Positions 13,893 to 55,885 of a DNA stretch of 64,000 bases are shown piece by piece. Positions within the stretch are counted from its first letter, which is position 1, and every line of letters begins with the position of its first letter. A model generated the notes under the pieces. The model was not told the DNA's origin, ran no database searches, and saw nothing but the letters and a program-made list of their open reading frames with translations. The DNA lies in NCBI GenBank assembly GCA_020638905.1, contig JACKHP010000002.1:258910-322909 (forward strand), in the 5' to 3' direction. The position numbers and the translations under genes are program-made. Origin of the DNA: Planctomycetota bacterium. GTDB taxonomy: Bacteria > Planctomycetota > B15-G4.

Positions 13893-14779
13893 TGCGCCGC
13901 GAGCGCCGCGAGCTTCTGCGCGTCGTCCTTCAGCTCGCGCAGCTTGGCCTGGTCGTTGTACGCGTAGTATCCGCGCACGCGGCCCTCGGCGTCGACGAGC
14001 GCGAAGCGTCCGCTGTGGAACATGGGCGGCATGCCGGCCACCTCGGTGCCGCGGGCGTTGACCGGCAGCTTGAAGCCGCTGTCGGCCAGGCTCTGGATGC
14101 CGTCGGACGTCCCGGTGAGCAGCCGCCACTGTTCCTTGCCGGTGCCGTACCGCTTGCGGTAGCCGGCGAGCACGCCGGGTTCGTCGTACCCGGGGTCGAC
14201 GGTGATCGAGAGCAGCTTGGCGGCCAGTCCCTCGCGCGCGAGCTGCGCGAAGATCGACGACATCTCGGGACACGGACCCGAGCAGCGCGTGAAGATGAAG
14301 TCGACCACCCACACCTGGCCGCGCATGTCGGCCCGCGTGAACGCCTTGCCGTCGTCGTCCACGAGCTCGAAGTCGGGCAGCAGACCGTGGACGGGCAGTC
14401 CCGTGCCGTCGTCGACCTGCGCCGGACCTTCGTCGGCGCCGAAGAACGCCGCCAGCCGGGCGACCTCGGCGTCGTCGTCGTCTTCGTCCGCCTCGTCGTC
14501 GTCGTCCCGGGACGCGGCCTTCTGGGCGGCCGCGCCGTGCTCGCCGTCGGCCAGGATCGTGCCCGACGCCGCATCGTCGAGGTGCTCCTCGGGCAGCTCG
14601 CAGCACGCGGCGGGCGCGGCCGCGTCGTCGGCCCTGGCCTCGGAGGGCTCGGCCTTCGACGTGCAGCCGGCGAGCAGCGCCGCGAGCGCGAGCGCACCCG
14701 CGACGAGCGCCGGACGCGCGCCCGCGTCGGGACGCGCCGCGGGGCGCGTGGGACCAGTCGTGCGGGAGCGCGTGCTCAT
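13889..14779 (-). CDS. SCO1/SenC-family copper chaperone lipoprotein
   Basis: Lipobox LLAGC. Acidic linker DDDDEADEDDDD. Thioredoxin-fold block VWVVDFIFTRCSGPCPEM and LSITVDPGYDEP. ATGA overlap with the upstream gene at 14776-14779. Confidence 0.88.
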   Translation of the reverse strand: MSTRSRTTGPTRPAARPDAGARPALVAGALALAALLAGCTSKAEPSEARADDAAAPAACCELPEEHLDDAASGTILADGEHGAAAQKAASRDDDDEADEDDDDAEVARLAAFFGADEGPAQVDDGTGLPVHGLLPDFELVDDDGKAFTRADMRGQVWVVDFIFTRCSGPCPEMSSIFAQLAREGLAAKLLSITVDPGYDEPGVLAGYRKRYGTGKEQWRLLTGTSDGIQSLADSGFKLPVNARGTEVAGMPPMFHSGRFALVDAEGRVRGYYAYNDQAKLRELKDDAQKLAALAAQ

Positions 14780-16404
14780 CGTCCGTCCTCCTCGTGGGTT
14801 GCGGTCTCGGGATGTGCGCCGGACGCATCGCGTGCGGCGGCCAGCGCGCGCACGTCGTCGCGCAGCTCGGCGAGCTGCAGCGCGTCGGCCGGCTCGTACG
14901 TGCCGCGCACGCGACCCTCGCCGTCGACGAGCGCGAAGCGTCCGCTGTGGAAGAGCTGCGGCAGGCCCTCGACCTCGGGCGCCTCGCCCCCCACCGGCAG
15001 GCGGAAGCCGTCGCGCGCCAGGGCCGCGATGGCCTCGGGATCGCCGGTGAGCAGGCGCCACGCGTCGTCGTCGGCCAGCGCGCCGCCCTGCCGGGCGCGG
15101 TACGCGGCGAGCGTCGCGGCGTCGTCGTGCGCGGCGTCGACGGTGATCGAGAGCAGGCGTGCGGGCAGTCCCTCGCCCGCGAGTGCGGCGTAGGACTTCG
15201 CCATGTCGACGCACTGGCCGGCGCAGCGCGTGTAGATGAAGTCGACCAGCCACACGTCGCCCAGCATGTCGCCGCGCGTGAAGGGACGTCCGTCGTCGGC
15301 GGTCAGCGCGAACTCGGGCAGCTCGCCGTACGACGGCAGCCCGCTGCCGTCGGCGGGCTGCGGCAGGACGTGGTGCACCGCGTCCGCGAGCGGCGCCGCG
15401 CGTCGGGACGGCGTGGCGCACGCGGCACACGCCGCGTCGGTGTCGGCGTGCAGCGCGCCGGACGTCGTCGCGCCGTCCGCGCAGTGCTCGCACGCGACGC
15501 CCTCGTCGACGTCCGCGACGGCCGCCGCGGCGGGACGGCAGGCCACGTCGACGACGAGTGACGCCAGCACCAGCGGCAGGTAGAGCACCGACGCCACCAC
15601 CACGCGTCGCGCGCCGCGCCGGTCGGGTTGCCGGAAGAATCCCAGCGCGGAGACGAGGAACAGCAGCCCGAGGACGAGCGCCACGAAGCCGTACAGCGCG
15701 CGCGCCTGTCCCGCCAGCACGGGCAGCGCCGAGACGAGCACCACCGACATGACCTGCATCGGCATCGTCCAGCGCAGCATGCGGTCTTCGGGGTCGTCGC
15801 CGGACAGCATGCGCAGGCCGCCCCTGCTGTACTCGTCGCGGTACATCGACGCGATGGCGAAGAAGTGCGGGAGCTGCCAGAGGAAGATCAGGCCGAAGGC
15901 CGTCCAGGCCAGCAGTCCGGGGCCGGCGAGGGGCGCCGCGGCGGCCGCGCCCACCACGAGCGGCAGCGCCCCGGGGATCGCCCCGACCCACGTGTTCGTG
16001 GACGTGCGCCGCTTGAGCGGCGTGTAGATCGCGAGGTACGTGAGCGACGCGCAGGCCAGCAGCAGCGCGGCCATCCAGCCGGCGCCGGCGATCGCGACGG
16101 CCAGGCCCGCGACCAGCGCGGTCAGTCCGAAGCCGACGACCTGGGCCGACGTGAGCGCGCCGGTCACCAGCGGACGGTTCTTCGTGCGCTCCATGCGCGC
16201 GTCGGTGTCGCGCTCGAGCCAGTGGTTGAGCGCGGTGCCGGCGGCCGAGACGAGCAGCGTGCCGAGCAGCGCCCAGGGCAGCGCGCTCCAGTCGGCGGGA
16301 CGCTCGAGCGCGTAGCCCGCCGCGCACGTGACGAGCACGAGCAGCGCGATGCGCGGACGCAGCAGCGCGGCCAGTCCCTCGCGGTCGAGCGGCGCGGCGG
16401 CCAC
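14776..16404 (-). CDS. ctaB: protohaem IX farnesyltransferase (haem O synthase) fused to a C-terminal SCO1/SenC domain
   Basis: The N-terminal two thirds contain LNHWLERDTDARMERTKNRPL (UbiA-type) and multiple TM helices. A Cys-rich linker (CEHC, CAAC) follows, then VWLVDFIYTRCAGQCVDM and LSITVDAAHDD. The GTG at 16404 starts 2 nt after the ctaA stop. An alternative ATG lies at 16464. Confidence 0.85.
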   Translation of the reverse strand: MAAAPLDREGLAALLRPRIALLVLVTCAAGYALERPADWSALPWALLGTLLVSAAGTALNHWLERDTDARMERTKNRPLVTGALTSAQVVGFGLTALVAGLAVAIAGAGWMAALLLACASLTYLAIYTPLKRRTSTNTWVGAIPGALPLVVGAAAAAPLAGPGLLAWTAFGLIFLWQLPHFFAIASMYRDEYSRGGLRMLSGDDPEDRMLRWTMPMQVMSVVLVSALPVLAGQARALYGFVALVLGLLFLVSALGFFRQPDRRGARRVVVASVLYLPLVLASLVVDVACRPAAAAVADVDEGVACEHCADGATTSGALHADTDAACAACATPSRRAAPLADAVHHVLPQPADGSGLPSYGELPEFALTADDGRPFTRGDMLGDVWLVDFIYTRCAGQCVDMAKSYAALAGEGLPARLLSITVDAAHDDAATLAAYRARQGGALADDDAWRLLTGDPEAIAALARDGFRLPVGGEAPEVEGLPQLFHSGRFALVDGEGRVRGTYEPADALQLAELRDDVRALAAARDASGAHPETATHEEDGR

Positions 16405-17429: not shown

Positions 17430-18221
17430 TCACTTGCGCTCGAACGTGTGCTCGAGCTTGCCGTTGCCGCCCTCGACCTTCACCTTCTCGGTCGCCTCGC
17501 CGAGCACGCGGTGCCAGATCTTGACGGTGTACTCGCCGTCGGGCAGGCCCTCGGTCGAGAACGAGAAGCTGCCGTCGGCAGCGGTGGACGCGAAGAACGG
17601 GTGCTCCATCGAGAAGGCGTAGGTCATCATCCAGGGGTGCACGTCGCACTTGATCTGGATGGCCTCCTCGGCCTTCTTGAACTCCTTCTCGACCGACCCG
17701 CCCTTCGTCGGCATGGCGGTGTTGAACTCCTTGTTCGTGCGCGGCACCGCGTGGATGTTGTGCAGCGTGGCGTCGCTGTTGACGATCTTCAGCGTCTGCT
17801 TCTTCATGATGCCGAAGACCTGCGGGTGGTACGTGCAGCCCTCCTGGTCGAGCTCGACGGGCTCGTCGGGCGTCGCGTACTTGGCGTCGGGCGCGTCGGT
17901 CAGGAACACGAAGCAGTCGGCCAGACCGCCCTTGTCGTCGACGTCGATGTGCGTCCGGTGCAGCCCGTCGGGATGCAGGCCGGCGCAGACCGGGTCGGCG
18001 TTCAGGTCGACCGCGTCCTCCTTCGGACGCTCGCCCTTGAAGTGCACGACGCCCGCGACGCGACCGGCGGCCACGGGCGCGGCCTCCTTGGCGGGGACCG
18101 TGGACGTCGCCGGCTGGGCGGCGGGCGCGACGGGGGCGGCCGTGGGCTCGTCGGCGGCCAGGCTCATTCCGCCGATCACGACGGCGGCGAGGAAGGTGGA
18201 CACGGTGGTCTTGCGGAGCAT
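17430..18221 (-). CDS. secreted cupredoxin-like (type-1 copper site) protein with a carboxypeptidase-regulatory-like C-terminus
   Basis: Signal peptide starts at MLRKTTVSTFLAAVVIGGMSLA (ATG 18221). Candidate copper ligands are LHNIHA ... KCDVHPWMM (H, C-x2-H-x3-M). The C-terminus reads DGSFSFSTEGLPDGEYTVKIWH. Confidence 0.7.
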   Translation of the reverse strand: MLRKTTVSTFLAAVVIGGMSLAADEPTAAPVAPAAQPATSTVPAKEAAPVAAGRVAGVVHFKGERPKEDAVDLNADPVCAGLHPDGLHRTHIDVDDKGGLADCFVFLTDAPDAKYATPDEPVELDQEGCTYHPQVFGIMKKQTLKIVNSDATLHNIHAVPRTNKEFNTAMPTKGGSVEKEFKKAEEAIQIKCDVHPWMMTYAFSMEHPFFASTAADGSFSFSTEGLPDGEYTVKIWHRVLGEATEKVKVEGGNGKLEHTFERK

Positions 18222-18493
18222 GGGAGACCTCGCGGAGGACGGAAGGAGGGCCGCGCGACTTCGCGCGGAGCCTGTCTCCGGGTGCACACTTTTCGTCCCG
18301 GGGACGGTTGCGTCGGGTAGCCTACGAAAACCTGCGGACCGAGGGGAAGGGCATGACGGTCCGGTGAGGGGCCGGGCGCCGGGGGCCACCAGGCGCGGGC
18401 GGCCAATCCGCCCAGGATCCCGACCTCCAGGTGACGTGCGGCTCCGTCCGACGGATGATGCAGCCGCTCCTGGCCGCTCGAAGGAGGTCGCCC

Positions 18494-21400
18494 ATGCGCC
18501 GCCCGTCCGCCCCGACCGCCCTGCTCGTCCTGCTCGCGCTGTTCGCCTGCGTCTCCGACGCCGACGGACCGCGCTCGAGCCTCGGCCCGGCCCCCGGCGG
18601 CACGTCCTCCCCGTCGGCGCCCACCTCGGTCCCTGGGGGCTCTCCCGCCGACGGCCAGGGCGCCTCGGCCAATCCGGCCCCGCCCCCCAGCGCCGACCTG
18701 GCGGCGCTGCACGTCGAGCACGGCGCGCTCGCGTGGGGCGCCGCCCCCGCGACCTCCGGGGGCAGGCGGCGCGCGCTGCTCGTGGGCGCCGACCGCTACC
18801 GCGACGAACCGCTGCTCGACCTGGGCAAGGTCTCTCCGCTGCTCTCCGACCTGCGGGACACGCTGCTCGACGAGCGCCTGGGCTTCGACCGCGTCTCGCT
18901 CGTGACCGGCGACCGCGTGCATCCCGACATCGTGCAGGACGAGATCGCGTCGCTGACCGCCGACCTGTCCGGTCCCGACAACCACCTGCTCGTACTGTGG
19001 GTAGGCCACGGCTTCAACGACGGCAGCGGACGCGAGACGCTGCTCACCTACCGCAGCCGCGCCGAGACGACGTCGAGCGACCCGTCGGCGCTGCCCTACG
19101 ACCAGCTCGTGGGCTGGATCGCCCAGGCGCGCACGCGCGTCGACGACGCGGGCGGCGAGCTCACCACGTCGATGCTGCTCGACGCCTGTCGCCAGGACAG
19201 CCTCGGTTCGCCGGGACGCATCCGCGACCACGTGCCGGTGCTCGACGTCGAGGCCTTCTCGGCGCCGCTCGGCAGTCCGGCGCCCGGCGGAGCCACCACC
19301 GAGCCGCTCTGGACGCGCGCCCTGCAGCGCGCGCTGGCCGGCGCGCGCTCCGCCAAGGTCAGCCTGCTGCGCGCGCTCGAGAACGCGCGCGCCGAGGTCC
19401 TGCGGCAGTCCGGCGGACGGGTCGAGCCCGAGATCCCCACCGGCGCGCACGACGTGACGCTCGTCGACCACGACGACATCGCGCTCACCGTGCGCGTCGT
19501 CGATCGCTTCACCCAGGCCGAGATCGCGGGCGCGCAGGTGCGCCTCAACGCGCTCGAGCGCACGGCGCCGGCCACCTTCACCGGGCTCGCGCGCAGCCCC
19601 GAGGGCTACGCGCTCATGGTGCGCGCCGACGGCTACTTCTGGCGCGCCGAGACGATCCCGCTCGACCGCGCCCAGGCCGGCGGGACGCTCACCGTGCCGC
19701 TGGCGCCCGAGTTCGTGGCGCTCTCGGGTTCGGTGCGGCTCGAGGGCACGGGCGTGGCGCGCGTGGCGGTCACCGGCGGATTCCCCGGGCTGCGCGACGG
19801 TTGGCACGTCACGTCGACCGTCGTCGACGGCTCCGGCGCGTTCCTCCTCAAGGTGCCCGCGGTCACCGGCGAACGCGCCCTCGTGATCGACGTGAACGGA
19901 GAGGAGGCCCGGCGACGCACGTTCGACATGTCCACCATGCCCTCGTCGGTGGTCGACGTCGACGGGACGCGCGTGCGCGTGCTCGAGTTCGGCGCCAGCG
20001 TCGTCTCGGCGCGCGGCGCGGTCGAGGTCGGCGGCGGGACCCAGGCCGTCGTCGTGGGCGACCTGATCGACGTACGCTTCGACTTCGACTCGCTGGGCTC
20101 GTCCGACTTCACCGACCGCAACGGCTTCTCGTTCTACGGCACGGTGCACGTGTTCAGCGACCAGGGCGCGTACGGCAAGGCACGCCGCGACCTCGACACG
20201 CTGCTCGCGCAGGGACGCGTCGTGCCCGACGCCCGGGCACGCGCCGAGGAGCTGCGCCACGAGCTGCGCGTGGCCGACGCCATGAGCACGGCCTCCGACC
20301 TCCAGGAGACGGGCCGGCTCGACGAGGCCATCGAACAGCTCGACGTCCCCGGGCTGGTCGAGGACGGCCGCGTGCGCAGCGTGCTCGTCTCGTGGCTGCT
20401 GGCCAGCGCGCGCGGGCACCACGCCGAGCGGCGCTACGGCGACGCCGCGGCGCGCCTCGAGCGCGCGCGCGAACTCGATCCCGCGCAACCCGGTCTCGAC
20501 GACCAGCTCGCGCGCGTCCACGACGAGTGGATCGGGCACTTCTACGAGCAGGCGCTGGGCGACGGCTCGTGGGACAACGTCTCGGCGCTCGTGACGGTGC
20601 TGGCCGGCAAGGGCGTCCCCGGCGTGCAGTCGTGGCGCGAACGCATCGAACGCGAAGACATCACGCCCGCCTGCCGGCGCGCGTACACCGCCGCGCTCGA
20701 ACAGCTCGGCGCGGGCGCCCTCGAGGACGCGCTCGCGTCGTTCGAGACGGCGCTGGCGTCCGGCTGCAACGAGCAGTACCGCTCGCAGATCACCCCGCAG
20801 CTCGCCGCGCTGCGCAACCAGCTCTTCGACCGGCACGTGAAGGCCGGCGCCGAGCGCGAGGCGGCCGGCGCGCTCTCCGACGCGTTGGCCGAGTACGTCG
20901 CGGCCCACGCCCTCGACCGCGTGGTGACCGACCGCATCGCCAGCCTGCTCGCGGCGCCCGAGCTCCCGCACGACACCACGATCGACGAGCTGGCCGGCCG
21001 CTTCCGGGCCCAGGAGGACGACTGGGAGGGGCGTCGCACCGAGCGCCTGCTGGCCCTGGGCGACCTGCGCGACTACGCGCGTCTCGACGCGACGGGTGTG
21101 GACGCCGTGCGGCGCGCGGCCGAACAGCGCTGGCCCGACGTCTTCGCGCACCTGGCGTTCCTGCGCGTCGAGCGCTTCGCGTGCGGGAGCAACGCCTTCG
21201 CCGTGGCGATCTACCGCCACCCCCCGACGGGGCTCGAGTTCGTGCTGCTGCCCGGCGGGACGTTCCTCCGCGGCAGCGGACCCGACGAGCCGGCGCGCCG
21301 CGACCACGAGAGCTCGCCCACGTCCACCACCGTCACGCCGTTCCTGGCGGCACGCACCGAGGTCACCCGTGCGCAGTGGCGCGCCGTCATGGGCGACGAC

Positions 21401-23074
21401 CCGTCGTGGTTCTCCGAGGCGCCGCTCGACGCTCCCGTCGAGTCGATCACGCCGACCCGGGCGCGTGAGTTCTGCGCGCGCTCCGGCTTCGAGCTGCCGA
21501 CCGAGTTCCGCTGGGAGTTCGCCTGCCGCGCGGGCAGCACGACGCCGCTGCCGAGCGGACCGATCACGGTGCGCGGCGACAACGACTCGCCCGAGGTCGA
21601 TGCGCTGGCCTGGTTCGGCGGCAACAGCGGCGTCGACTACCCGGGCGGCTCCGACAGCTCGTCGTGGGTCGCGCAGATCCACCCGCACGCCTTCGCCGGG
21701 ACGCACGCCGTGGCCGGCAAGGCGCCCAACGCGTTCGGACTGTACGACGTGCTCGGCAACGTCTGGGAGCTGTGCTCGAACACCTGGGAGGGTGACATCG
21801 GCGTGTCGCGCGGCGGGTCGTGGTCTTCGATCGCCGGCGACTGTCGCGCAGCCAGCCGCAACGCCGTGCAGCCCGACGAGGCCGCGCGCACGGTGGGCTT
21901 CCGTCCCGTGATCGAGCTGCCGGGCGAGATCGACACGGCCGCGGCACGCACGCGCCTGATCCAGAACCTGCTCGAGCTCGACGAGAGCGACTCCGACGAC
22001 GTGAGCGGCGACGGCAAGGGAGTGTACGAGTCACTCGAGCTCGACGACGGCTCCGGCAAGGGAGCGGAAGGCGACGGCGGCAAGTCCGGCGGCCTGCTCT
22101 CGGGCAAGATCGACGCCGACGTCTGGCGCTGGATGGCCGACCAGAACGGACTCTTCGACCGCGCGCGCTACGCCGAGCTCGACCTCGAAGGCGTCGAGCG
22201 CGTCCGGCGACTGGCCGAGCGTCGCTGGCCCGCGGCGTTCACCGACCTCGAGCTCTCGGAGGTGCGCTGGGAGTCCGGCGGCGACGCGTCGCACTTCGTC
22301 GCGGTCTACACGCAGCCGTCCAGCGGACTCGAGTTCGTGCTCGTCCCCGGCGGGACGTACGAGATGGGCTCGCAGCCCGGCTCGCCGGGTCACTCGTCCG
22401 ACGAGGGTCCGGCGCACGAGGTCACGATCGCACCGATGCTCGTGGCGCGCACAGAGGTCACCCAGGGCCAGTGGACGCGTGCGATGGGTTCGAACCCGTC
22501 GTACTTCGGCGGCCTGGGCGACGACCGTCCCGTCGAGCACGTCTCGTGGGACGACGCACACGGATTCTGCGATCGATTCGACCTGTCGCTCCCCACCGAG
22601 GCCGAGTGGGAGTACCTCTGCCGCGCCGGCACGACGACGCCCACACCGTGGGGAGGGATCACCCAGCTCGGCGACCGCGACTCCGACGCGCTCGACCCGG
22701 TCGCCGTCTACGGCGGCAACAGCGGCGTCGACGATCCGGGCGGACTCGACAGCAGCGGCTGGACGGGCGTGGCCCACCCCAGCGCGCGGGCCGCCACGCA
22801 TCCGGTCGCCTCGAAACAGGCCAATGCGTTCGGTCTCTACGACGTGCTCGGCAACGTCTACGAGTGGTGCGAGGACGTCTACCGCGGCGACTACAGCGAC
22901 GCACCGGGCGATGGCGGTCCGGTGCTCGGCGACGACCCGGACAAGGTCGTGCGCGGCGGCGACTTCAGCTCGACCGTCTCGAACTGCCGCTCGACCGCAC
23001 GGGGCCGCATCGAGAAGGACACGCAGACCTGCTACGTCGGGTTCCGTCCGGTGCGGCGGCTCGGCACACGCTGA
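18494..23074 (+). CDS. 1526-aa lipoprotein: caspase-like (C14) peptidase + beta-sandwich/helical middle + two FGE-sulfatase (FGS) domains
   Basis: AAGGAGG lies 6 nt before ATG 18494. Lipobox LLALFAC. Caspase blocks RRALLVGADRY, LLVLWVGHG (His codon 19007-19009) and SMLLDACRQD (Cys codon 19187-19189). FGE-like blocks LEFVLLPGG..NAFGLYDVLGNVWE..RGGSW..VGFRPV (about 21232-21915) and LEFVLVPGG..NAFGLYDVLGNVYEW..RGGDF..VGFRPV (about 22328-23060). Confidence 0.85.
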   Translation: MRRPSAPTALLVLLALFACVSDADGPRSSLGPAPGGTSSPSAPTSVPGGSPADGQGASANPAPPPSADLAALHVEHGALAWGAAPATSGGRRRALLVGADRYRDEPLLDLGKVSPLLSDLRDTLLDERLGFDRVSLVTGDRVHPDIVQDEIASLTADLSGPDNHLLVLWVGHGFNDGSGRETLLTYRSRAETTSSDPSALPYDQLVGWIAQARTRVDDAGGELTTSMLLDACRQDSLGSPGRIRDHVPVLDVEAFSAPLGSPAPGGATTEPLWTRALQRALAGARSAKVSLLRALENARAEVLRQSGGRVEPEIPTGAHDVTLVDHDDIALTVRVVDRFTQAEIAGAQVRLNALERTAPATFTGLARSPEGYALMVRADGYFWRAETIPLDRAQAGGTLTVPLAPEFVALSGSVRLEGTGVARVAVTGGFPGLRDGWHVTSTVVDGSGAFLLKVPAVTGERALVIDVNGEEARRRTFDMSTMPSSVVDVDGTRVRVLEFGASVVSARGAVEVGGGTQAVVVGDLIDVRFDFDSLGSSDFTDRNGFSFYGTVHVFSDQGAYGKARRDLDTLLAQGRVVPDARARAEELRHELRVADAMSTASDLQETGRLDEAIEQLDVPGLVEDGRVRSVLVSWLLASARGHHAERRYGDAAARLERARELDPAQPGLDDQLARVHDEWIGHFYEQALGDGSWDNVSALVTVLAGKGVPGVQSWRERIEREDITPACRRAYTAALEQLGAGALEDALASFETALASGCNEQYRSQITPQLAALRNQLFDRHVKAGAEREAAGALSDALAEYVAAHALDRVVTDRIASLLAAPELPHDTTIDELAGRFRAQEDDWEGRRTERLLALGDLRDYARLDATGVDAVRRAAEQRWPDVFAHLAFLRVERFACGSNAFAVAIYRHPPTGLEFVLLPGGTFLRGSGPDEPARRDHESSPTSTTVTPFLAARTEVTRAQWRAVMGDDPSWFSEAPLDAPVESITPTRAREFCARSGFELPTEFRWEFACRAGSTTPLPSGPITVRGDNDSPEVDALAWFGGNSGVDYPGGSDSSSWVAQIHPHAFAGTHAVAGKAPNAFGLYDVLGNVWELCSNTWEGDIGVSRGGSWSSIAGDCRAASRNAVQPDEAARTVGFRPVIELPGEIDTAAARTRLIQNLLELDESDSDDVSGDGKGVYESLELDDGSGKGAEGDGGKSGGLLSGKIDADVWRWMADQNGLFDRARYAELDLEGVERVRRLAERRWPAAFTDLELSEVRWESGGDASHFVAVYTQPSSGLEFVLVPGGTYEMGSQPGSPGHSSDEGPAHEVTIAPMLVARTEVTQGQWTRAMGSNPSYFGGLGDDRPVEHVSWDDAHGFCDRFDLSLPTEAEWEYLCRAGTTTPTPWGGITQLGDRDSDALDPVAVYGGNSGVDDPGGLDSSGWTGVAHPSARAATHPVASKQANAFGLYDVLGNVYEWCEDVYRGDYSDAPGDGGPVLGDDPDKVVRGGDFSSTVSNCRSTARGRIEKDTQTCYVGFRPVRRLGTR

Positions 23075-33490: not shown

Positions 33491-33610
33491 CGAAGCCGAA
33501 GCCGAAGCCGAAGCCGAAGCCGAAGCCGAAGCCGAAGCCGAAGCCGAAGCCGAAGCCGAAGCCGAAGCCGAAGCCGAAGCCGAAGCCGAAGCCGAAGCCG
33601 AAGCCGAAGC
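33491..33610. repeat. perfect hexanucleotide microsatellite (CGAAGC)x20
   Basis: 120 nt of uninterrupted cgaagc units, read directly from the sequence. Intergenic: downstream of the 33633..34262 gene and about 220 nt upstream of the selenoprotein start. Confidence 0.97.
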
Positions 33611-33632
33611 GCGCGGCTGCGGACGCCTCGCT

Positions 33633-34262
33633 TCAGACCCCGCGCGGCAGGACGTGGATCGCGACCACCGCGCCGGCCGTCCAGAGCACGGCGAGGAGCG
33701 CCTCGCGCAGTCCCTGGCGACGCAGGTCGGCGCGCGTCCAGCCCTTGTGGCGGGCGAGGGCGACGCGGATGTGCCAGGTGCGCCAGACGAAGAACGGCGT
33801 GAGCAGGATGCCGAGCAGCCAGCCCTCGCGGGCCGTGCCGCCGCCGGCGCAGGCGGCCGAAGGCGCGGCCACGACGAGCGCCGCCACCGCGAAGCACAGG
33901 GCGATCGGCGACATGAAGCCGTCGCGCTGCGCGAACCAGACCGCGGCGCCCGCGGGGAACGCGGCCACGAGCGCGTAGGCGAAGAAGTTCGGATCGCCTC
34001 CCGAGCGCAGCGCGAGCAACGGCGCGCCGGCCGCGAGCAGCAGTCCCCACGCGGCGCGCCGACGCCACGCCGGCCGCGGGTGCAGCGCGCCCGCGCTCGC
34101 GAGCAGGAAGATGCCCGCGTAGCCGAGTCCCGCGAAGAGCGCGGGGACGAAGCCTTGTCCCGCCACCGAGAGCGCGCCGGCCAGGATCGAGACCACGAGG
34201 TAGACCCACGCGCCGTGGGCCTTGGCCGGGTCGGGCATGGGACGGGAGAGCAGCGCGGACAT
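33633..34262 (-). CDS. polytopic membrane protein, YwiC-like
   Basis: 209 aa with about 6 hydrophobic helices. The N-terminal AKAHGAWVYLVVSILAG resembles the HGAW start of YwiC-like proteins (family assignment from memory). Confidence 0.5.
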   Translation of the reverse strand: MSALLSRPMPDPAKAHGAWVYLVVSILAGALSVAGQGFVPALFAGLGYAGIFLLASAGALHPRPAWRRRAAWGLLLAAGAPLLALRSGGDPNFFAYALVAAFPAGAAVWFAQRDGFMSPIALCFAVAALVVAAPSAACAGGGTAREGWLLGILLTPFFVWRTWHIRVALARHKGWTRADLRRQGLREALLAVLWTAGAVVAIHVLPRGV

Positions 34263-48279: not shown

Positions 48280-49046
<767 letters not shown>

Positions 49047-49147
49047 CCGAGTCCGCGGTGCCCGCGCGATTTGGGCACCGCTCGACGGCCGGCACCCCGC
49101 CGCGCCCTCGCCACCGTCGACGAGCACGCTCTTGATAGAGTGGTGCG

Positions 49148-49810
49148 GTGAACGATCTCGTCGGCAGGTCCCCGCTCTTCCCGTTGCCCTTCGGGGCCCT
49201 GCTGCCGGGACAACTCCTCCCGCTCCACGTCTTCGAGCCGCGCTACCGGCGCATGCTCGAGGTCGTGCGCAAGGGCGACCGCATGATCGCCATGGCGACC
49301 CTCGCCACGGGCTGGCCGGTCGAGGCGCTCGGCAACCCGCCGATCCATCCCGTGGTCGGCATCGGCCGGCTCGTGAAGGACAAGCTCAACGCCGACGGCA
49401 CGAGCGACATCGTGCTGCACGGCATCGTGCGCGGCGAGATCACGGCCGAGGCCGGCGGCGAACCCTACCGTCAGGCGCTCGTGCGCCTGCACCCCGACGA
49501 CGAAGACCACCCGGCCATCGCGTACCGCCTGCGGCGCGCGCTGCTCGAGGGGCTCAGCGAGCGGCTGGGCGGCAAGCTCGTGTGCGACGTGACGACGGGG
49601 TTCCAGCCGGGAGGCCTGGTCGATCGCATCGCCGTCGGACTCGACCTCGACCCCGAACAACGCGTCGAACTCATGCAGGCCATCGCACCCGAGAAGCGCG
49701 TGCACCTGCTGATCGAGGTCCTGGGCGAGCGTCGGCACCGCCAGAAGCTGTTCGCCCTCGTGCCCAAGCTCGCCGAATTCTCGCTCTCGCTCCAGGACAG
49801 CAAGACATGA
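49148..49810 (+). CDS. LON N-terminal substrate-binding (PUA-like) domain protein, no ATPase or protease domain
   Basis: SPLFPLPFGALLPGQLLPLHVFEPRYRRML... matches the Lon N-domain start. 220 aa. Confidence 0.8.
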   Translation: MNDLVGRSPLFPLPFGALLPGQLLPLHVFEPRYRRMLEVVRKGDRMIAMATLATGWPVEALGNPPIHPVVGIGRLVKDKLNADGTSDIVLHGIVRGEITAEAGGEPYRQALVRLHPDDEDHPAIAYRLRRALLEGLSERLGGKLVCDVTTGFQPGGLVDRIAVGLDLDPEQRVELMQAIAPEKRVHLLIEVLGERRHRQKLFALVPKLAEFSLSLQDSKT

Positions 49811-52800
49811 AGACCGCCTTCTCCGCGCTCTTCGGCGCCGTCGGAAGCACCCTCGCGCAACCCCGGCTGGTGTTCCTGCTGTGGCTCGTGAACGCGGCCG
49901 TCGCGCTCGTCCTCGTCGCGCCGCTCTTCGACGCGATCGACACGACGGTGGCGCACAACCCGCTGGCGTCCACGGCGCTCACGTCCTTCGACGACGAGGT
50001 GCTGGTCGACTTCGAGAACACGCACGCCCCGACGCTCGACGCCACGCTGCGCGGCGTGCGCACGGCCGCGCTGCCGTTCGTGCTGCTCTCGTCGATCCTG
50101 GCCATGGGCGTGCTCACGCAGCTCACGTCGCGACGAGGCGGCCCCGGCCTGCTGGCCGGCTGCGGACGCCACGGACATCGCGCCTTCTGGCTGCTCGCCA
50201 CCACGCTGCTCGCGCTGTGGGGCCTCTCGTTCGGCAGCGACGCGCTCTCGGGCTGGATCACCCGCTCGTTCACCGAGGGCGTGCGCGACGCGTCCGCCGG
50301 GTTGCTGGGCTGGACGATGACGGCGAGGTCGGCGCTCGTCGTGCTGGCGGCCGGGGCGCTGCTCACCGCGCATCGCGTGGCGCGTCTGCGCGTCGTGCTG
50401 GGCGGCGAACGCTTCGTCCCGCTCACGTGGCTGCGCGCGCTGGCGTCGGTGCTGCGTCACCCGCTCGCGGTGGGGACGGCCTCGATCCTGTCGCTCTTGC
50501 CGCTTCTGCTCGTGGGCTGGGCGCACCTCGTGGCGTCCGACGCGCTGCTGGCGAACGACGGATGGCTGCCGGGCGTGCGCCTCGAGTGGCGCATGCTGCT
50601 GCTGTTCCAGGTGACGCTGCTGCTCGTGCAGGCCGCGCTCGTCTACCGTGCCGCGGTCGACGTGCGCCTGTGGCCGCTGCTGCGTCCGTCCGACGGCGCG
50701 CCCGTCGACCCGATCGGCCCGTCCGACGTCGACCCGCTCGGACAGGGCGTGGCCGCGGCGGGTGGTGCGGCGCTGCTGTTCGTGGTCGCATCCGCGGGCG
50801 TGCTGCTCGCGTTCCGCGGAGAGACCCCGGCCGACGCCGCGACCGCCGCGCCCGCGCTGCCGGTCGCGACGACCGCCGCCCCCGCGCCGCCCGCCACGCT
50901 CGCGGCGGCCTCCGCCGAGCCCGCGGTTGCCGCACCCCTCGCGCAGGACGCCTCCGCGCCGCCTCCCCCGGCACGACCCGCCGCCCTCGACGCGCCCGCG
51001 TTCGTGCCGGCCGCGACGCCGCGGCGTCCCGAGCTGCGCAATCGCTACGCGATGGACGTGACCCTCGACCTCGCCGGGCACACGGCCGACGCGCGCCAGC
51101 GCGCGACCTTCGTGAACACCACCGACGCGCCCGTCCCCGACCTGTGGATGCACCTCTACGCGGCGGCGTTCTCCAACGACCGGACGATCTACATGCGCGA
51201 GTCCGCGCTGCTCGGACGCAACGGCGACGCGGTCGCCGAGCGCGGCGAGGCCGACGGCGGCGGCATCGAGATCCGCTCGGTGCGGCTCGAGGGCGCCGAG
51301 CTGGGCGACGCGGTCAGCATCGCCGGCGACGAGCGCGACGTGGGCGACGGACGCGATGCGTCGCTCATGCACGTGCGGCTGCCCGCGCCCGTCCCGCCCG
51401 GCGGACAGGTGACGCTCGAGATCGACTTCACCACGCGCTTCCCGCGCACCGTGGCGCGCATGGGGATGACCGGACTGCACCTCGACGGCATGCAGTGGTT
51501 CCCGAAGTTCTGTGCGCACGACGCGGGCGGCTGGCGGAACCGTCCCTTCTGGAGCACCGGCGAGTTCTTCGCCGACTTCGGCAGCTACGACGTGACGTTC
51601 ACCTGGCCGACGACGATCGACGAGCACCCGGTCGAGCTCGAGGCCACCGGCGTCCCGCACGAGCTGGTGGCGCGCGGCGACGGCATGCAGACGCGGCGCT
51701 ACCTCGCCACCGACGTGCACGACTTCGCGTTCACCGCCGACCCCGCGTTCCAGCGCATCGAGCGCGAGTGGACGGCGCCCGACGGCCGCAAGATCCCCGT
51801 GGTCTACCTGTGCCAGCCGTACGCGCTGCCGAAGGCCGACCTCGTGCTCGACGTCGTGCTGACGTGCCTCGACCGCTCCGCCGAGTGGTGGATGCCGTAC
51901 CCGTGGCCGCGCCTCGTGATCGACGGCCTGCCCTTCGGCCAGGGCGGCGGCATGGAGTACCCCATGCTGTTCACGATCAGCCAGAACCAGCCCAACCACC
52001 TCGCGTCGCTCGTCGACCTCTCCGAAGACCCGGCAGGCGTCACGGCGCACGAGTTCGGGCACCAGTACTGGTACGGCGTCATGGCCAGCGACGAGGTCGA
52101 CGAGGCCTGGCTCGACGAGGGCATCAACACCTGGTCGACGAACCGCTTCATGGACGCCTGGCGTCCGTCGCCCGGACGTGTCGGCGCACTCACGTTCCTG
52201 CGTCGCGACCTGGCCTGCGGCGTGGCGAACGGGTCGTTCTTCGGCTCGGGATGGCTCGACCCGGCGCAGGTCGTGGGATGGAGCGAGAGTCCGTTCCGCT
52301 CGTCGCGCAGCCTGCTGGGCTTCGGCTTCCCCGGCGTGCGGTCGCTGGCGCTCGACGACATGGGTGTCGACCGCGTCGCCTGGGAGAAGGCGCGCTACGC
52401 CGACGTCGCGAAGGTGCGTCCGCTCTCGGCACCCTCGCGCGACTTCACGCGCGGCTACGGCCCGATCGTCTACAGCAAGACCGGGCTCGCGATGGCGACG
52501 CTCGAGCGTCACCTCGGCCGCGACGGCATGGACCGCCTCATGCGCCGCTACGTCGAGTCGTTCGCCTTCCGGCACCCCACCGCCGACGACTTCCTCTCGC
52601 TCGTCGAGGCCGAGGGCGGACGTCCTGCGCGCACGCTCTTCGAGCAGCTCGTGCGGACGAACGGCACCGTCGACTTCGCCGTCGAGGAGGTGCGCAGCGT
52701 CGAGCAGGCTCCGCTGGTCGGCTTCCGTCCACAGCGGCACCCGGGCGACCCGTTCGACTTCGTGGCCGCCGAGGAGAAGCCCGCGCGTCCGTCGCGCCCG

Positions 52801-53331
52801 TTCTGGGAGCGCTGGTGGGGCGCGGTGTTCGAGACGCCCTTCCCGGGACACCGCGCGTCCGACGACGCCGTCGTGGACGCAGCCCACGCCGACGGATCCG
52901 GCGCGCCGCCGATCCCCGGCGAGGGCGACGCGACACGGGGCGACGACGCGATCGCGGACGACGCCGGCGCGAACGCCGACGCGAACGCCGACGCCGCGAC
53001 GCACGCCGCGCCGCCGTTGTGGATCTCGCGCTACGTCGTGCGCCAGAAGGGCGAGATCGAAGCGCCGGTCGAGATCGAGGCGCGCTTCGCCGACGGGTCC
53101 GTCCAGCGCGAGACCTGGGACGGACGCGGCGGGTACCACATCGTGCGCCACGAGTCCTCTGCGCCCATGGTGTCCGTCGTGGTCGATCCCGAGCGCCGCT
53201 TCGCCCTCGACCTCGACCGCAACGACAACGGCTGGCAGTCCGACGACGGCACGCGCACCGCACGCACCCTCGACGCGTTCGTCCACTTCGTGACGCAGTG
53301 CGACCTGGCCGGCTGGCAGCTGCTCTTCTGA
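49807..53331 (+). CDS. membrane-anchored M1-family (gluzincin) metallopeptidase
   Basis: ATGA overlap with the upstream stop at 49807-49810. The N-terminal ~330 aa are polytopic TM, followed by an Ala/Pro linker. Zinc site VTAHEFGHQYWYG...EAWLDEG (HExxH at 52048-52062 plus a downstream Glu). Confidence 0.8.
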   Translation: MKTAFSALFGAVGSTLAQPRLVFLLWLVNAAVALVLVAPLFDAIDTTVAHNPLASTALTSFDDEVLVDFENTHAPTLDATLRGVRTAALPFVLLSSILAMGVLTQLTSRRGGPGLLAGCGRHGHRAFWLLATTLLALWGLSFGSDALSGWITRSFTEGVRDASAGLLGWTMTARSALVVLAAGALLTAHRVARLRVVLGGERFVPLTWLRALASVLRHPLAVGTASILSLLPLLLVGWAHLVASDALLANDGWLPGVRLEWRMLLLFQVTLLLVQAALVYRAAVDVRLWPLLRPSDGAPVDPIGPSDVDPLGQGVAAAGGAALLFVVASAGVLLAFRGETPADAATAAPALPVATTAAPAPPATLAAASAEPAVAAPLAQDASAPPPPARPAALDAPAFVPAATPRRPELRNRYAMDVTLDLAGHTADARQRATFVNTTDAPVPDLWMHLYAAAFSNDRTIYMRESALLGRNGDAVAERGEADGGGIEIRSVRLEGAELGDAVSIAGDERDVGDGRDASLMHVRLPAPVPPGGQVTLEIDFTTRFPRTVARMGMTGLHLDGMQWFPKFCAHDAGGWRNRPFWSTGEFFADFGSYDVTFTWPTTIDEHPVELEATGVPHELVARGDGMQTRRYLATDVHDFAFTADPAFQRIEREWTAPDGRKIPVVYLCQPYALPKADLVLDVVLTCLDRSAEWWMPYPWPRLVIDGLPFGQGGGMEYPMLFTISQNQPNHLASLVDLSEDPAGVTAHEFGHQYWYGVMASDEVDEAWLDEGINTWSTNRFMDAWRPSPGRVGALTFLRRDLACGVANGSFFGSGWLDPAQVVGWSESPFRSSRSLLGFGFPGVRSLALDDMGVDRVAWEKARYADVAKVRPLSAPSRDFTRGYGPIVYSKTGLAMATLERHLGRDGMDRLMRRYVESFAFRHPTADDFLSLVEAEGGRPARTLFEQLVRTNGTVDFAVEEVRSVEQAPLVGFRPQRHPGDPFDFVAAEEKPARPSRPFWERWWGAVFETPFPGHRASDDAVVDAAHADGSGAPPIPGEGDATRGDDAIADDAGANADANADAATHAAPPLWISRYVVRQKGEIEAPVEIEARFADGSVQRETWDGRGGYHIVRHESSAPMVSVVVDPERRFALDLDRNDNGWQSDDGTRTARTLDAFVHFVTQCDLAGWQLLF

Positions 53332-53347: not shown

Positions 53348-54904
53348 TCAGTAGCAACCCACCTGCATCGAGTCCCTGCGGCCACCGGCCACCCGTCCGG
53401 TGGCCACGTATCCGATCTGGCGCAGGCGTTCGGCGGTCACGTCGCTCACCGCGTCGAGGTCGAACGGCTTCTGGTGATCGGGGTCGGCCAGGAAGTCCCG
53501 CAACGCCGCCACGTGCCCGCGGAACTCGGGCGGCAGGCGCTCGGGCGCGCTCACGGCACCCACGTCGAGGTCGGCCAGCAGGTCGACCTGCTCGTGCGGA
53601 TCGGCCTGCAGGTCGTAGCCCTCGAGGCACGCGATCTCGAAGCCGCGCCCCGGCGCGACGTCGTACGGCGACTTGCGCGGGTGCGTCCCCTGCGGGTTGT
53701 AGACGAGCTTGTAGCGGGCGTCGACGACGCAGGTGATGAGGTCCTGCCACTCGATGAACGCGTACGGCGCGGGCGCCTGCTCGGTCTCGCCGCGCAGCAG
53801 GGGTGCCAGGGAATGGCCTTCGAGCGAGTCGTCGCCGGGCACGCCGAGCAGGTCGAGCACCGTGGGCACGATGTCGACGTTCTGCACGTGCGCCGGCACG
53901 CGCCGTCCGGCGGGCAGGCCAGGCCCCTCGATCACCAGCGGGATGCGCACCACGCCGTCGTAGACCGACGCGCCGTGATAGAAGTACCGGTTGTGGTCGA
54001 ACAGCTCCTCGCCGTGGTCGGCGGTGAGGACGACGTACGTCGAGTCGAGCTCGCCGAGCTGCTCGAGCTGAGCCAGCAGCCGCCCCACGCGCCGATCGGT
54101 GCCGGCCACTCCGCCGTCGTACAGTCCGAGGATGCGCTGCAACTCGGTCGCCGGCACGGGTCGGTCGCCGAGCGTGATCTGCCCCAGGAACTGCTCGAGC
54201 GAGGCCGACGAGTCGGGGCCCGGCGCGACGATCGCCTCGGGCACGCCGTCGGTGGGTCCGAAGTGCTGGTCCTCTGGCTGCGGGTTGTACGGCTTGTGGA
54301 CGTCGTAGAAGTGCACCCACATCGCGAACGGCCGCGTGCGGTCGACGCCCTGCAGGTAATCGCTCGCCGCCTTCTCGACGCGGTCGTCCCACACGTGCTG
54401 GAAGCGGCTCTCCATGCGCGCCTCGAGCACGCGCCGTCCGGCGTAGCCGTCGGACTTCACGTCGGCGCCGCGCGCCACCCAGGACTCGACCGGATCGTCG
54501 ACCTCGAAGTTCGCGATGAACACGCCGGTCTGCCAGCCCGCGTCGTGCAGCCGCTCGAAGAGCGTCGCGTGCTCGTGCGCCAGCGGATACCCGTTCTCGC
54601 GCAGCCCCGTGGTGATCGGGTACTTGCCCGTGATCATGGCCGAGATCGACGGGTGGGTCTGGCCGCGCGCCGCGAAGGCCGTCTCGAACAGCACCCCACG
54701 CTCGGCCAGCCCGTCGATCGACGGCGAGGGAGACGAGTTCCAGTCGTCGTTGCCGTACGTGCCCAGGCGATCGGCACGCAACGTGTCGATCGAGAGCAGC
54801 ACCAGGTTGTAGTCGGTGGGAGGCACCCCCGGAGACTTCGCCCCCTCCCCGCACGACGTGGCGAGCAGCAGTCCGGATGCGAGGGCGAGCAACGGACGTC
54901 CCAT
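53348..54904 (-). CDS. sulfatase-fold (alkaline-phosphatase superfamily) lipoprotein with Thr in place of the FGly-forming Cys/Ser
   Basis: ATG 54904. Lipobox LLLATSC. LVLLSIDTLRADRLG, then GQTHPSISAMITGKYP where canonical sulfatases have C/S-x-P-S-R-x4-TG. Also LTADHGEE. Confidence 0.85.
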   Translation of the reverse strand: MGRPLLALASGLLLATSCGEGAKSPGVPPTDYNLVLLSIDTLRADRLGTYGNDDWNSSPSPSIDGLAERGVLFETAFAARGQTHPSISAMITGKYPITTGLRENGYPLAHEHATLFERLHDAGWQTGVFIANFEVDDPVESWVARGADVKSDGYAGRRVLEARMESRFQHVWDDRVEKAASDYLQGVDRTRPFAMWVHFYDVHKPYNPQPEDQHFGPTDGVPEAIVAPGPDSSASLEQFLGQITLGDRPVPATELQRILGLYDGGVAGTDRRVGRLLAQLEQLGELDSTYVVLTADHGEELFDHNRYFYHGASVYDGVVRIPLVIEGPGLPAGRRVPAHVQNVDIVPTVLDLLGVPGDDSLEGHSLAPLLRGETEQAPAPYAFIEWQDLITCVVDARYKLVYNPQGTHPRKSPYDVAPGRGFEIACLEGYDLQADPHEQVDLLADLDVGAVSAPERLPPEFRGHVAALRDFLADPDHQKPFDLDAVSDVTAERLRQIGYVATGRVAGGRRDSMQVGCY

Positions 54905-55450
54905 GGACGGACTCCGCGGAAGTTGGGGGCGCACGACGCGGCGAGCATGGCACAGACGCACGCGAGGGGCGAGGGTGTTGGACGAGCCTCGTGCGCGGCC
55001 CGGCGACGTGCTCGGGTTCCAGCGCCCGGCTCCGGTCCTCGGGGACGCCGCCTGCGGCGACGCCCCTGCGGAGGTCGCCGGGCACTGGACCCTGCGCGCG
55101 TCTTGGTCCGCGCATGCGGAGTCGGGTGAGGGAATGAGCGTCGGCGGATGACGTCGTCGAGCACGGGGTGCGGCGCTTGGGGCAGCATCGAGTGCGGTCG
55201 GCGGATCACGCGCGGTGGGCGCGCCCGCAGGGGCGGGGCTCGCGGTCGACGGGGGCTCGAACAGTCCTCGCGGCCCTGCGGGCCGCTGCGGAACTCGCCC
55301 CCGCCGACGGCAAGATCCTCGGGGCGCGCGAGGGGAGCGCGTCGAGAGAACGAAGCGACGCGCTCGCTGCGCGAGCGACGCCGCGGCGGAGTACGTGGGT
55401 GCGCGTTGCTGCGACTCGCTGCGCTCGTCGCTCGGGGGGCTGAGCGTTCG

Positions 55451-55528
55451 TCGGGTTCGGTATCGGCTGCGACTGCGGAGTCGGCTTCGGCTTCGGCTTC
55501 GGCTTCGGCTTCGGCTTCGGGTTCGGCT
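55451..55528. repeat. hexanucleotide array (TCGGCT and variants), the reverse-complement relative of the 33491-33610 array
   Basis: Thirteen hexamer units: tcgggt tcggta tcggct gcgact gcggag, then six perfect tcggct (55481-55516), then tcgggt tcggct. Intergenic. Confidence 0.9.
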
Positions 55529-55885
55529 ACTCGAGCTCGCGCAACATTCGCGACGACGCCTCACTCGATGCGCGTGATGGCGCGCTCCGAGGCACATGCC
55601 CAGCGCGCTGCGAGTTCCGCAGCCGCCGCAGGCGGCGAGGACTGTCCGAAGCTGCGCGCTGCTGCGTGACGATCGTCAGCGGGCGCGCACGCAACGCCCC
55701 GAAGCGCCGCGCGTGCGACGTGGGCGCCGCGTCACGCCGCCACTTTGCTCGCGTCCGCCGAGCCGTTCATCCTTTCATCTCGCGAAGGGAGCGCCGCGCG
55801 AGCAGCGGCGGGCGATGTGGGACGGAGGCCAGGTGTTCCCCCACCTGGCCGCAGTCCCACGTCGCCCGACGCGTCGCGCACTCGG

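Follow-up and report, generated by a model that had tools for sequence, protein, structure and literature searches.

The window analysed here is a stretch of 64,000 nucleotides of a Planctomycetota contig (JACKHP010000002.1, positions 258,910 to 322,909), and the gene in question is a single long open reading frame (ORF) at positions 18494-23074 of its forward strand. We propose that the product of this gene is a clan-CD cysteine protease that is anchored in the envelope and directed to its target by lectin-like modules with the fold of the formylglycine-generating enzyme (FGE), a reading that draws on sequence comparisons and structural models and to which we give a probability of about 0.5. 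It is carried by a caspase-like head with a conserved His/Cys dyad, by two C-terminal FGE-fold modules that have lost a catalytic Cys, and by an N-terminal lipoprotein signal. Rather than being a singleton, the protein belongs to a coherent subfamily of exported proteins with an intact dyad and lectin-like tails that are not FGE; at least 83 clusters make up this subfamily, all of them from uncultured Planctomycetota and Myxococcales.

Caspase-like head domain

Direct library signals for a caspase on the query were confined to NCBIfam model NF047832 and the PADLOC caspase model, both below threshold, and because of this the assignment needed independent support. Among the relatives of the protein, 20 of the 42 scanned match Pfam PF00656 (Peptidase_C14) directly, with a best E of 2e-15, and the closest homologue (P0009) scores 23.9 bits for this family, for which the gathering threshold is 21.4. 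When AlphaFold2 was run on residues 86-480 with 15 rows from the family, the resulting model had a mean predicted local distance difference test score (pLDDT) of 87.4; the modelled head has the strand and helix order of a caspase, with the His after β3 and the Cys after β4, and is followed by two β-sandwiches. With this model as the query, the best Foldseek match in the PDB was the MALT1 paracaspase (caspase and Ig3 domains, E 3e-13), followed by dozens of caspase-7, -3, -8, -9 and -11 chains with target TM scores of up to 0.75. A sequence search of the PDB with the N-terminal domain alone came back empty. The family profile, by comparison, matches plant and yeast metacaspases at about 1e-6 (metacaspases 9, 4, and 1), with the GHG motifs aligned.

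The candidate catalytic residues are nearly invariant in a 65-sequence alignment that covers the common N-terminal ~390 residues and from which the conservation counts of single residues given here are taken. In the first motif, G171, H172, and G173 are conserved in 65, 63, and 60 sequences, respectively; in the second, D230, A231, C232, and R233 are conserved in 61, 60, 64, and 57. When the family profile was aligned with MALT1, represented by a single sequence identical to the PDB chains, H172, C232, and D230 fell on H415, C464, and D462. Taken together, the sequence and model comparisons support a fold of the caspase/paracaspase/metacaspase superfamily with a predicted catalytic dyad that is intact. 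The preliminary description, made from the letters of the DNA and their translations, had already proposed a caspase/C14 core and had placed its His and Cys at exactly these codons. Both points were borne out, the fold being supported and the two residues aligning with the catalytic dyad despite the silence of Pfam on the query.

Asp230, two residues before the Cys, is a putative S1-pocket residue. In MALT1 the equivalent D462 is a described S1-pocket residue, and true caspases have Gln at this position. Because the D-x-C motif of the query matches MALT1 where caspases have Gln, the head would probably cleave after Arg or Lys rather than after Asp. A full S1 pocket of the MALT1 type was also considered and rejected, since D365 and E500 have no clear counterparts and D230 alone matches an acid of that pocket.

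FGE-fold modules

FGE-sulfatase (PF03781) is the sole Pfam family found on the query, at 244.7 bits (E 1.6e-72) over two stretches. The two modules are 47% identical over 305 residues in a BLASTP comparison (E 8e-89), their DNA copies recur at an interval of 1095 nt with 71-72% identity, and each repeat unit carries an extension of ~60 residues before the Pfam domain. In module 2, GGDF-S-S1493-TVSN-C1498 aligns opposite GGSF-L-C-HESY-C of the Thermomonospora curvata FGE, and the corresponding motif of module 1 is GGSW-S-S1112-IAGD-C1117. The copper-binding pair of catalytic Cys residues (CxxxxC; C336 and C341 in the human enzyme) is thus broken in both modules, the first Cys being lost and the second kept. 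Among the 25 motif matches of the family, the first position is Cys in one and the second in 10, and the pair is absent from all of them.

Because the copper-binding pair is broken in both copies, these modules, judged by their residues, cannot be formylglycine-generating enzymes, and the name under which the protein is deposited is misleading and is corrected here. The loss of the first Cys from both domains had been noticed in the preliminary description, along with the expectation that they bind ligands rather than generate formylglycine. The alignment confirmed the former, and the nearest solved relatives agree with the latter: these are the ligand-binding TvpA (PDB 2y3c), which is the best by sequence (E 2.9e-22), and PvdO, which is the best by Foldseek. 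Cryo-EM chains of PorK were also among the PDB matches. None of the NCBIfam equivalogs came near its cutoff, with PvdO at 128.9 of 500 bits, GldK (TIGR03525) at 111 of 350, GldJ at 45 of 458, and EgtB at 79 of 360; SenA and OvoA were likewise far under theirs.

We also considered whether the modules are targets of a diversity-generating retroelement (DGR), and rejected this possibility. A search of the window for repeats of the FGE region returned only the two internal copies, which are old duplicates, and neither a template repeat in the window nor a reverse transcriptase among its annotated genes was found.

Gene and lipoprotein N-terminus

At a GC content of ~72%, long spurious ORFs abound in the window, and ORFs of more than 1100 codons in two other frames overlap the gene. 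The 1526-codon frame, followed by its stop codon, is free of internal stops and has a third-position GC of 0.94, with the order position 3 > 1 > 2 that is typical for the real genes of the window. An identical 1526-residue product is recorded in NCBI as 'MAG: formylglycine-generating enzyme family protein [Myxococcales bacterium]' (MAG, metagenome-assembled genome), and gene calls on a further contig, recorded separately in Logan (L001), give the same product. Because the product is unchanged in both records, an artefact joining two genes is unlikely, and the single continuous product of the preliminary description stands. An upstream GTG start at 18431 was rejected: it lacks a Shine-Dalgarno sequence, it would move the Cys of the lipobox to position 40, and both public gene calls begin at the ATG. 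A scan for consensus promoters and terminators found none, as expected at 72% GC.

The N-terminus, MRRPSAPTALLVLLALFA-C19, conforms to the lipoprotein rule of PROSITE (PS51257/PS00013), with Arg2 and Arg3 in the n-region and the hydrophobic stretch ALLVLLALFA running up to C19, so that the lipobox LLALFAC read at the outset holds as well. Cys19 (18548-18550) is the residue predicted to be lipidated and would carry a diacylglyceryl group. The segment that follows is rich in Pro, Ala, Ser, and Gly; stretches of this kind are common in lipoproteins as flexible tethers.

β-Sandwich and helical regions

Between the head and the FGE modules lie two regions that were recognized mainly from models. 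The β-sandwiches are modelled at residues 329-403 and 407-478. Pfam did not match CarboxypepD_reg (PF13620) on the query; 8 of the 42 relatives do match it, and matches of the family profile extend to 3g3l and to a TonB-linked receptor chain (9gbc), in the latter case to its N-terminal part. The second β-sandwich contains a GYH motif whose His, His438 (19805-19807), is shared by 57 of the 65 sequences and lies far in sequence from the catalytic dyad.

A second model, covering residues 481-1150 with a mean pLDDT of 77.9, shows ~16 paired helices over residues 542-884, then a helix and a β-hairpin that lead into the FGE fold. The block-mean pLDDT is ~86-96 over residues 531-820, ~80 by residue 830, and ~58 near residues 841-860. 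Foldseek matched the helical region to CTPR, SPINDLY, and the TPRs of OGT with E values of 2.5e-4 to 1e-3 and low TM scores, and the Pfam TPR matches on the query were all sub-threshold (E 0.016 or weaker). 'TPR-like' is a reasonable label for the modelled helices, but not a proven one. PADLOC matches to Csx1 and CARF-HEPN (E ~2e-4, residues 583-661) fall in the same helical region and were set aside as noise. Of the domains anticipated in the preliminary description, profile searches of the query itself thus recovered FGE-sulfatase but not Peptidase_C14, CarboxypepD_reg, or TPR; for the middle of the protein, the β-sandwiches and TPR-like helices are backed by the models and, for CarboxypepD_reg, by relatives, but not by a significant Pfam match on the query.

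Table 1 Predicted features of the caspase-FGE gene, and lipoprotein genes upstream of its relatives.
Feature	Residues	Position	Strand	Basis
Strong Shine-Dalgarno sequence, GAAGGAGG		18480..18487	+	read from the sequence; 6-nt spacer to ATG 18494
Whole gene		18494..23074	+	translation; third-position GC 0.94; same product on record in NCBI and Logan
Predicted lipoprotein signal peptide	1-19	18494..18550	+	lipobox L-F-A-C; PROSITE rule
Low-complexity tether rich in Pro, Ala, Ser, and Gly	20-90	18551..18763	+	P, A, S, and G account for 50 of 71 residues
Caspase/paracaspase-fold domain (clan CD, C14-like), predicted	92-316	18767..19441	+	model, Foldseek, family profile
Predicted catalytic His, GHG motif	172	19007..19009	+	63/65 conserved; on MALT1 H415 and the metacaspase GHG
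Predicted catalytic Cys, DACR motif	232	19187..19189	+	64/65 conserved; on MALT1 C464
β-Sandwich region, modelled	329-530	19478..20083	+	models; two CarboxypepD_reg-like sandwiches and further strands, including His438
Helical repeat region, ~16 helices, TPR-like	542-852	20117..21049	+	model; conserved in 33 relatives
FGE module 1 (C-type-lectin fold) with helix/β-hairpin N-terminal extension	853-1150	21050..21943	+	PF03781; Foldseek to PvdO, TvpA, and FGE
Module 1, Ser in place of the first catalytic Cys	1112	21827..21829		motif RGGSWSSIAGDC
Module 1, second Cys	1117	21842..21844		motif as above
Linker between FGE modules, acidic, Gly-rich	1151-1217	21944..22144	+	translation, between the repeat units
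FGE module 2, tandem duplicate of module 1	1218-1526	22145..23071	+	PF03781 at residues 1280-1521
Module 2, Ser in place of the first catalytic Cys	1493	22970..22972		T. curvata FGE alignment
Module 2, second Cys	1498	22985..22987		T. curvata FGE alignment
Upstream lipoproteins of relatives, putative partners		L004:6677-7948, L007:3597-5033, L008:5634-7004		co-directional with the caspase gene

Protein family

Residues 86-900 of the query were used in an exhaustive HMMER search of 1.84 billion representatives. This search retrieved 83 proteins at E<=1e-3, 27 of them at E<=1e-30, each standing for a cluster at 50% identity, so that the family comprises at least 83 clusters. Export signals are present at the start of nearly all of them: the lipobox rule holds for 38 of the 83 relatives and most of the others have signal-like N-termini; a strongly hydrophobic N-terminal stretch is present in 57. 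Members that carry a name are all called 'hypothetical' or 'SUMF1/EgtB/PvdO family' and come from MAGs of Planctomycetota and Myxococcales.

A C-terminal FGE module is found in the query and 34 relatives, whereas the tails of other relatives consist of Sel1, right-handed β-helix, RCC1, PPC, PEGA, or TPR domains. A constant protease head combined with a swapped tail is the pattern expected for one protease chassis with interchangeable targeting domains. Paralogues with different tails co-occur in at least two MAGs: L002 and L003 are found together in one MAG and P0011 and P0071 in another, and P0017 and P0035 come from one sequencing sample.

Other searches of the same question were less productive. 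A profile scan of a genome collection with a tighter alignment gave two loci, both in one Planctomycetota MAG. A word-index homology search returned only FGE-domain neighbours for the full-length query and two marginal matches for the family profile; for the N-terminus it returned nothing, not even the query itself, and the method is thus uninformative for this family.

One further protein, P0092 (628 residues, from a metagenome), combines PF00656 and PF03781 behind a signal-like N-terminus and has FSGHS and LDCC motifs. Because P0092 is unrelated to the query family, exported caspase-FGE fusions appear, from their sequences, to have arisen more than once. The exported, lipid-anchored form, which the preliminary description regarded as unusual, is not a one-off, given the at least 83 clusters, the 38 relatives with a lipobox, the 35 proteins with an FGE module, and P0092 besides. 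The remark that duplicated FGE modules are unusual did hold up, a duplication being present in the query and P0019 only.

Genomic context

The caspase-FGE gene stands alone on the forward strand. Upstream, on the opposite strand, lie a divergent gene for a secreted protein of 263 residues and then ctaA, ctaB-SCO1, and DUF420 genes; groEL follows downstream in convergent orientation. Elsewhere, the window contains argG, ligA, and queA, as well as genes for a histidine kinase, an ABC-F protein, and a sulfatase. The context is that of housekeeping genes and shows no sign of a conflict or cell-death system. No NTPase, MoxR/vWA, TIR, or reverse transcriptase was found in the protein or among the annotated genes of the 64-kb window, and the window showed no template repeat; more specifically, STAND, MoxR, or GTPase NTPases and vWA or EAD components were found neither in the protein with Pfam and NCBIfam nor among its neighbours. 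PADLOC gave no significant system match, and in nine related loci there were no recurring defence genes and no NTPase or EAD components beside the gene. The preliminary description was therefore right in stating that no NTPase is present, either in the protein or in adjoining genes, but the conflict or cell-death theme that it mentioned finds nothing in the gene neighbourhoods that points to it.

The context of close relatives provided another possible connection. Three of them (P0010, P0012, and P0017) share a homologous upstream lipoprotein of 420-480 residues (pairwise E 3e-9 to 3e-26), and two of these loci have a 4-nt overlap between its gene and the caspase gene. This lipoprotein belongs to no Pfam family, shows only weak TPR hints, and may be a partner, substrate, or inhibitor of the caspase-like protein. 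In two relatives that are more distant, the upstream position is likewise occupied by lipoproteins, though non-homologous ones.

Several other features of the window were recorded. The divergent 263-residue protein (17433-18221, reverse strand) has a signal-like N-terminus, was assigned to no family, and gives a weak CarboxypepD_reg-like match (E 0.016); it also adjoins the caspase gene on the second contig, L001. The sulfatase gene (53351-55675, reverse strand; PF00884, E 2e-42) is adjoined by a 1495-residue ORF (48844-53328, forward strand) with only a partial Peptidase_M1 match. A functional link between the FGE-like gene and this sulfatase, the sole one in the window, was rejected, as the two are 30 kb apart and not adjacent. 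About 22 perfect tandem copies of CGAAGC occupy the intergenic positions 33491-33622, directly 3' of a membrane-protein ORF (33633-34262, reverse strand). Direct DNA repeats at 13905-14421 and 14837-15362, 73% identical and ~935 nt apart, fall within two adjoining genes, DUF420 and UbiA-SCO1, of the haem A/cytochrome oxidase assembly cluster and probably reflect a duplicated domain.

Proposed mechanism and alternative explanations

Based on these results, we suggest the following mechanism. The protein would be exported by the Sec pathway and then lipidated at Cys19, and the tether of ~70 residues rich in Pro, Ala, Ser, and Gly would keep the protease head, with His172 and Cys232, off the membrane. 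The head would cleave its substrates, probably after Arg or Lys and not after Asp. The β-sandwich and TPR-like regions could serve as spacer, scaffold, or regulatory elements, and the two C-terminal modules, which resemble C-type lectins, would bring the protease to a protein or glycan target in the periplasm or at the cell surface. The targeting role is proposed by analogy with the C-type-lectin folds of the TvpA type.

Several observations weigh against this proposal. PF00656 did not match the query even at E<=10, whether the whole protein or the isolated N-terminal segment was searched. NF047832 ('caspase, EACC1-associated type') reached 43.5 bits, with a cutoff of 140 bits, over the N-terminal half of the model only, and the PADLOC caspase model gave an E of 1e-4, below its cutoff. 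The hhalign probability for the single-sequence MALT1 was only 32%, and one of the three MALT1 S1-pocket acids (D462) is matched, which makes the P1 specificity uncertain. Peptidase activity is predicted only, for every family member. The ligand of the FGE modules is likewise putative, and proteins of the PvdO type with an FGE fold are annotated as enzymes, so that the modules may have another catalytic role. Finally, no homologue of the lipoprotein shared by the three close relatives was found in the 64-kb window with tblastn or HMM searches.

The alternative that survives best, although we regard it as unlikely, is an envelope analogue of the caspase/FGE-sulfatase conflict systems, a sensor-effector of conflict or immunity, free of NTPase and extracytoplasmic, in which the FGE/C-type-lectin (CLec) modules would sense, in the periplasm or at the surface, a molecule of an invader or competitor, e.g. 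a phage receptor-binding protein, and free the caspase-like protease to act on envelope targets, leading to abortive infection or alarm. FGE-sulfatase (FGS) domains and caspase-like peptidases do recur in predicted NTP-dependent conflict systems and DGR targets (PMC7159879; bioRxiv 10.1101/2023.09.22.558884), and some CLec sensors are predicted to be periplasmic (bioRxiv 10.1101/2023.09.22.558884). Moreover, the best NCBIfam caspase match is of the EACC1-associated type, among solved relatives with an FGE fold the DGR-diversified TvpA is the best match in sequence, and the constant head, variable tail, and several paralogues per genome resemble immune receptor families. However, the NCBIfam match is far under its cutoff, PADLOC found no significant system, the components named above (NTPase, MoxR/vWA, EAD, TIR, and the reverse transcriptase and template repeat of a DGR) are missing, the window is one of housekeeping genes (groEL, ctaA/ctaB, argG, ligA, queA), and the nine related loci have no recurring defence genes.

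An extended form of the idea, which we offer as a speculation and consider improbable, is that the whole family consists of unrecognised envelope 'surveillance proteases'. The β-sandwich and TPR-like region would keep the head inactive until a foreign molecule, bound by the interchangeable lectin-like tail in the periplasm or at the surface, switched the protease on; the activated head would then cleave envelope substrates, possibly including the coupled lipoprotein of close relatives, to signal or kill. If true, these proteins would correspond to caspase-based immune sensors, but act outside the cytoplasm and have no NTPase.

Equally improbable, in our estimation, is that the protein is a non-proteolytic scaffold lipoprotein of the envelope, like PorK/GldK and GldJ of type IX secretion and gliding, in which the caspase-like domain would only bind. 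This explanation would account for the similarity of the FGE fold to GldK/PorK and GldJ, including the 111 bits for TIGR03525 and the PorK chains among the PDB matches, for the combination of a lipoprotein with a TPR-like scaffold, and for the translationally coupled lipoprotein partner of close relatives. On the other hand, the conservation of the dyad in 63 and 64 of 65 sequences, together with its flanking motifs, argues for catalysis, the GldK and GldJ scores are far below 350 and 458 bits, and the window has no type IX secretion genes near the gene. An enzymatic role of the FGE-fold modules, as PvdO-like oxidases or dehydrogenases or others of the SUMF1/EgtB/PvdO type that would make the protein a bifunctional protease and modifying enzyme, is very unlikely: the database name, the rank of PvdO as best NCBIfam and Foldseek match, the sulfatase gene 30 kb away, and an earlier speculation on combined proteolytic and formylglycine modification for metacaspase-FGE fusions (PMC3501461) speak for it, but both modules have Ser for the first catalytic Cys, the pair is absent from all 25 family motif matches, PvdO, EgtB, SenA, and OvoA all score far short of the respective cutoffs, the sulfatase gene is not a neighbour, and pyoverdine or ergothioneine genes are absent from the annotated genes of the window.

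An envelope-anchored protease with targeting modules thus remains the reading we prefer, and H172, C232, D230, S1112, and S1493 are the residues it offers for a first biochemical study. With this subfamily, at least part of the question posed by caspase-FGE fusions shifts from the cytoplasm and 'programmed cell death' towards proteolysis in the envelope or at the surface.

Comparison with known systems

The pairing of a caspase homologue with an FGE domain is not new. Since 2012, fusions of this kind have counted among the commonest architectures of prokaryotic metacaspases, and in the survey of Asplund-Samuelsson et al. the FGE-sulfatase was the fifth commonest partner domain, present in 33 of 671 proteins (PMC3501461). 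The same survey noted possible N-terminal signal peptides (hydrophobic segments) and gave no function. The recurrence of the pairing, which the preliminary description had stated, is therefore documented (PMC3501461, PMC7159879). The exported caspase-FGE subfamily was not found described in a literature search, for which the library was incomplete.

Like the orthocaspase or bacterial metacaspase fusions of 2012 (PMC3501461), the query has an N-terminal C14 p20-like domain with a His/Cys dyad and a C-terminal FGE-sulfatase domain. Unlike them, it has diverged beyond the reach of PF00656, its N-terminus has a lipobox and a tether, two β-sandwiches and a TPR-like region of ~300 residues separate its protease domain from the FGE domain, and the latter is duplicated. 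MALT1, the best structural match, resembles the query from the caspase domain into the following β-sandwich and has LLDMCRK where the query has LLDACRQ; it differs in being a eukaryotic cytoplasmic signalling protease with ~13-20% identity and entirely different N- and C-terminal domains.

The FGS/CLec domains of conflict systems and DGR targets (Kaur et al. 2020, PMC7159879; TvpA) share with the query a non-catalytic FGE-fold module placed C-terminally to other domains, an arrangement that PMC7159879 noted as an 'architectural syntax', whereas MoxR/vWA, STAND NTPase, EAD, reverse transcriptase, and template repeat are all missing from the query locus, and its two copies are not a pair of template and variable repeats. 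The lipoproteins PorK/GldK and GldJ and the periplasmic PvdO are, like the query, exported or lipid-anchored proteins with an FGE-sulfatase fold that is not an FGE. In contrast to the query, they have no protease domain, and the query scores far below their family cutoffs. Judged by its sequence, the protein lacks what defines NTP-dependent conflict systems, DGR targets, FGE proper, PvdO, and GldK, and the best description for it is the known architecture joining a caspase homologue to an FGE domain, in a new form that is exported and lipid-anchored.

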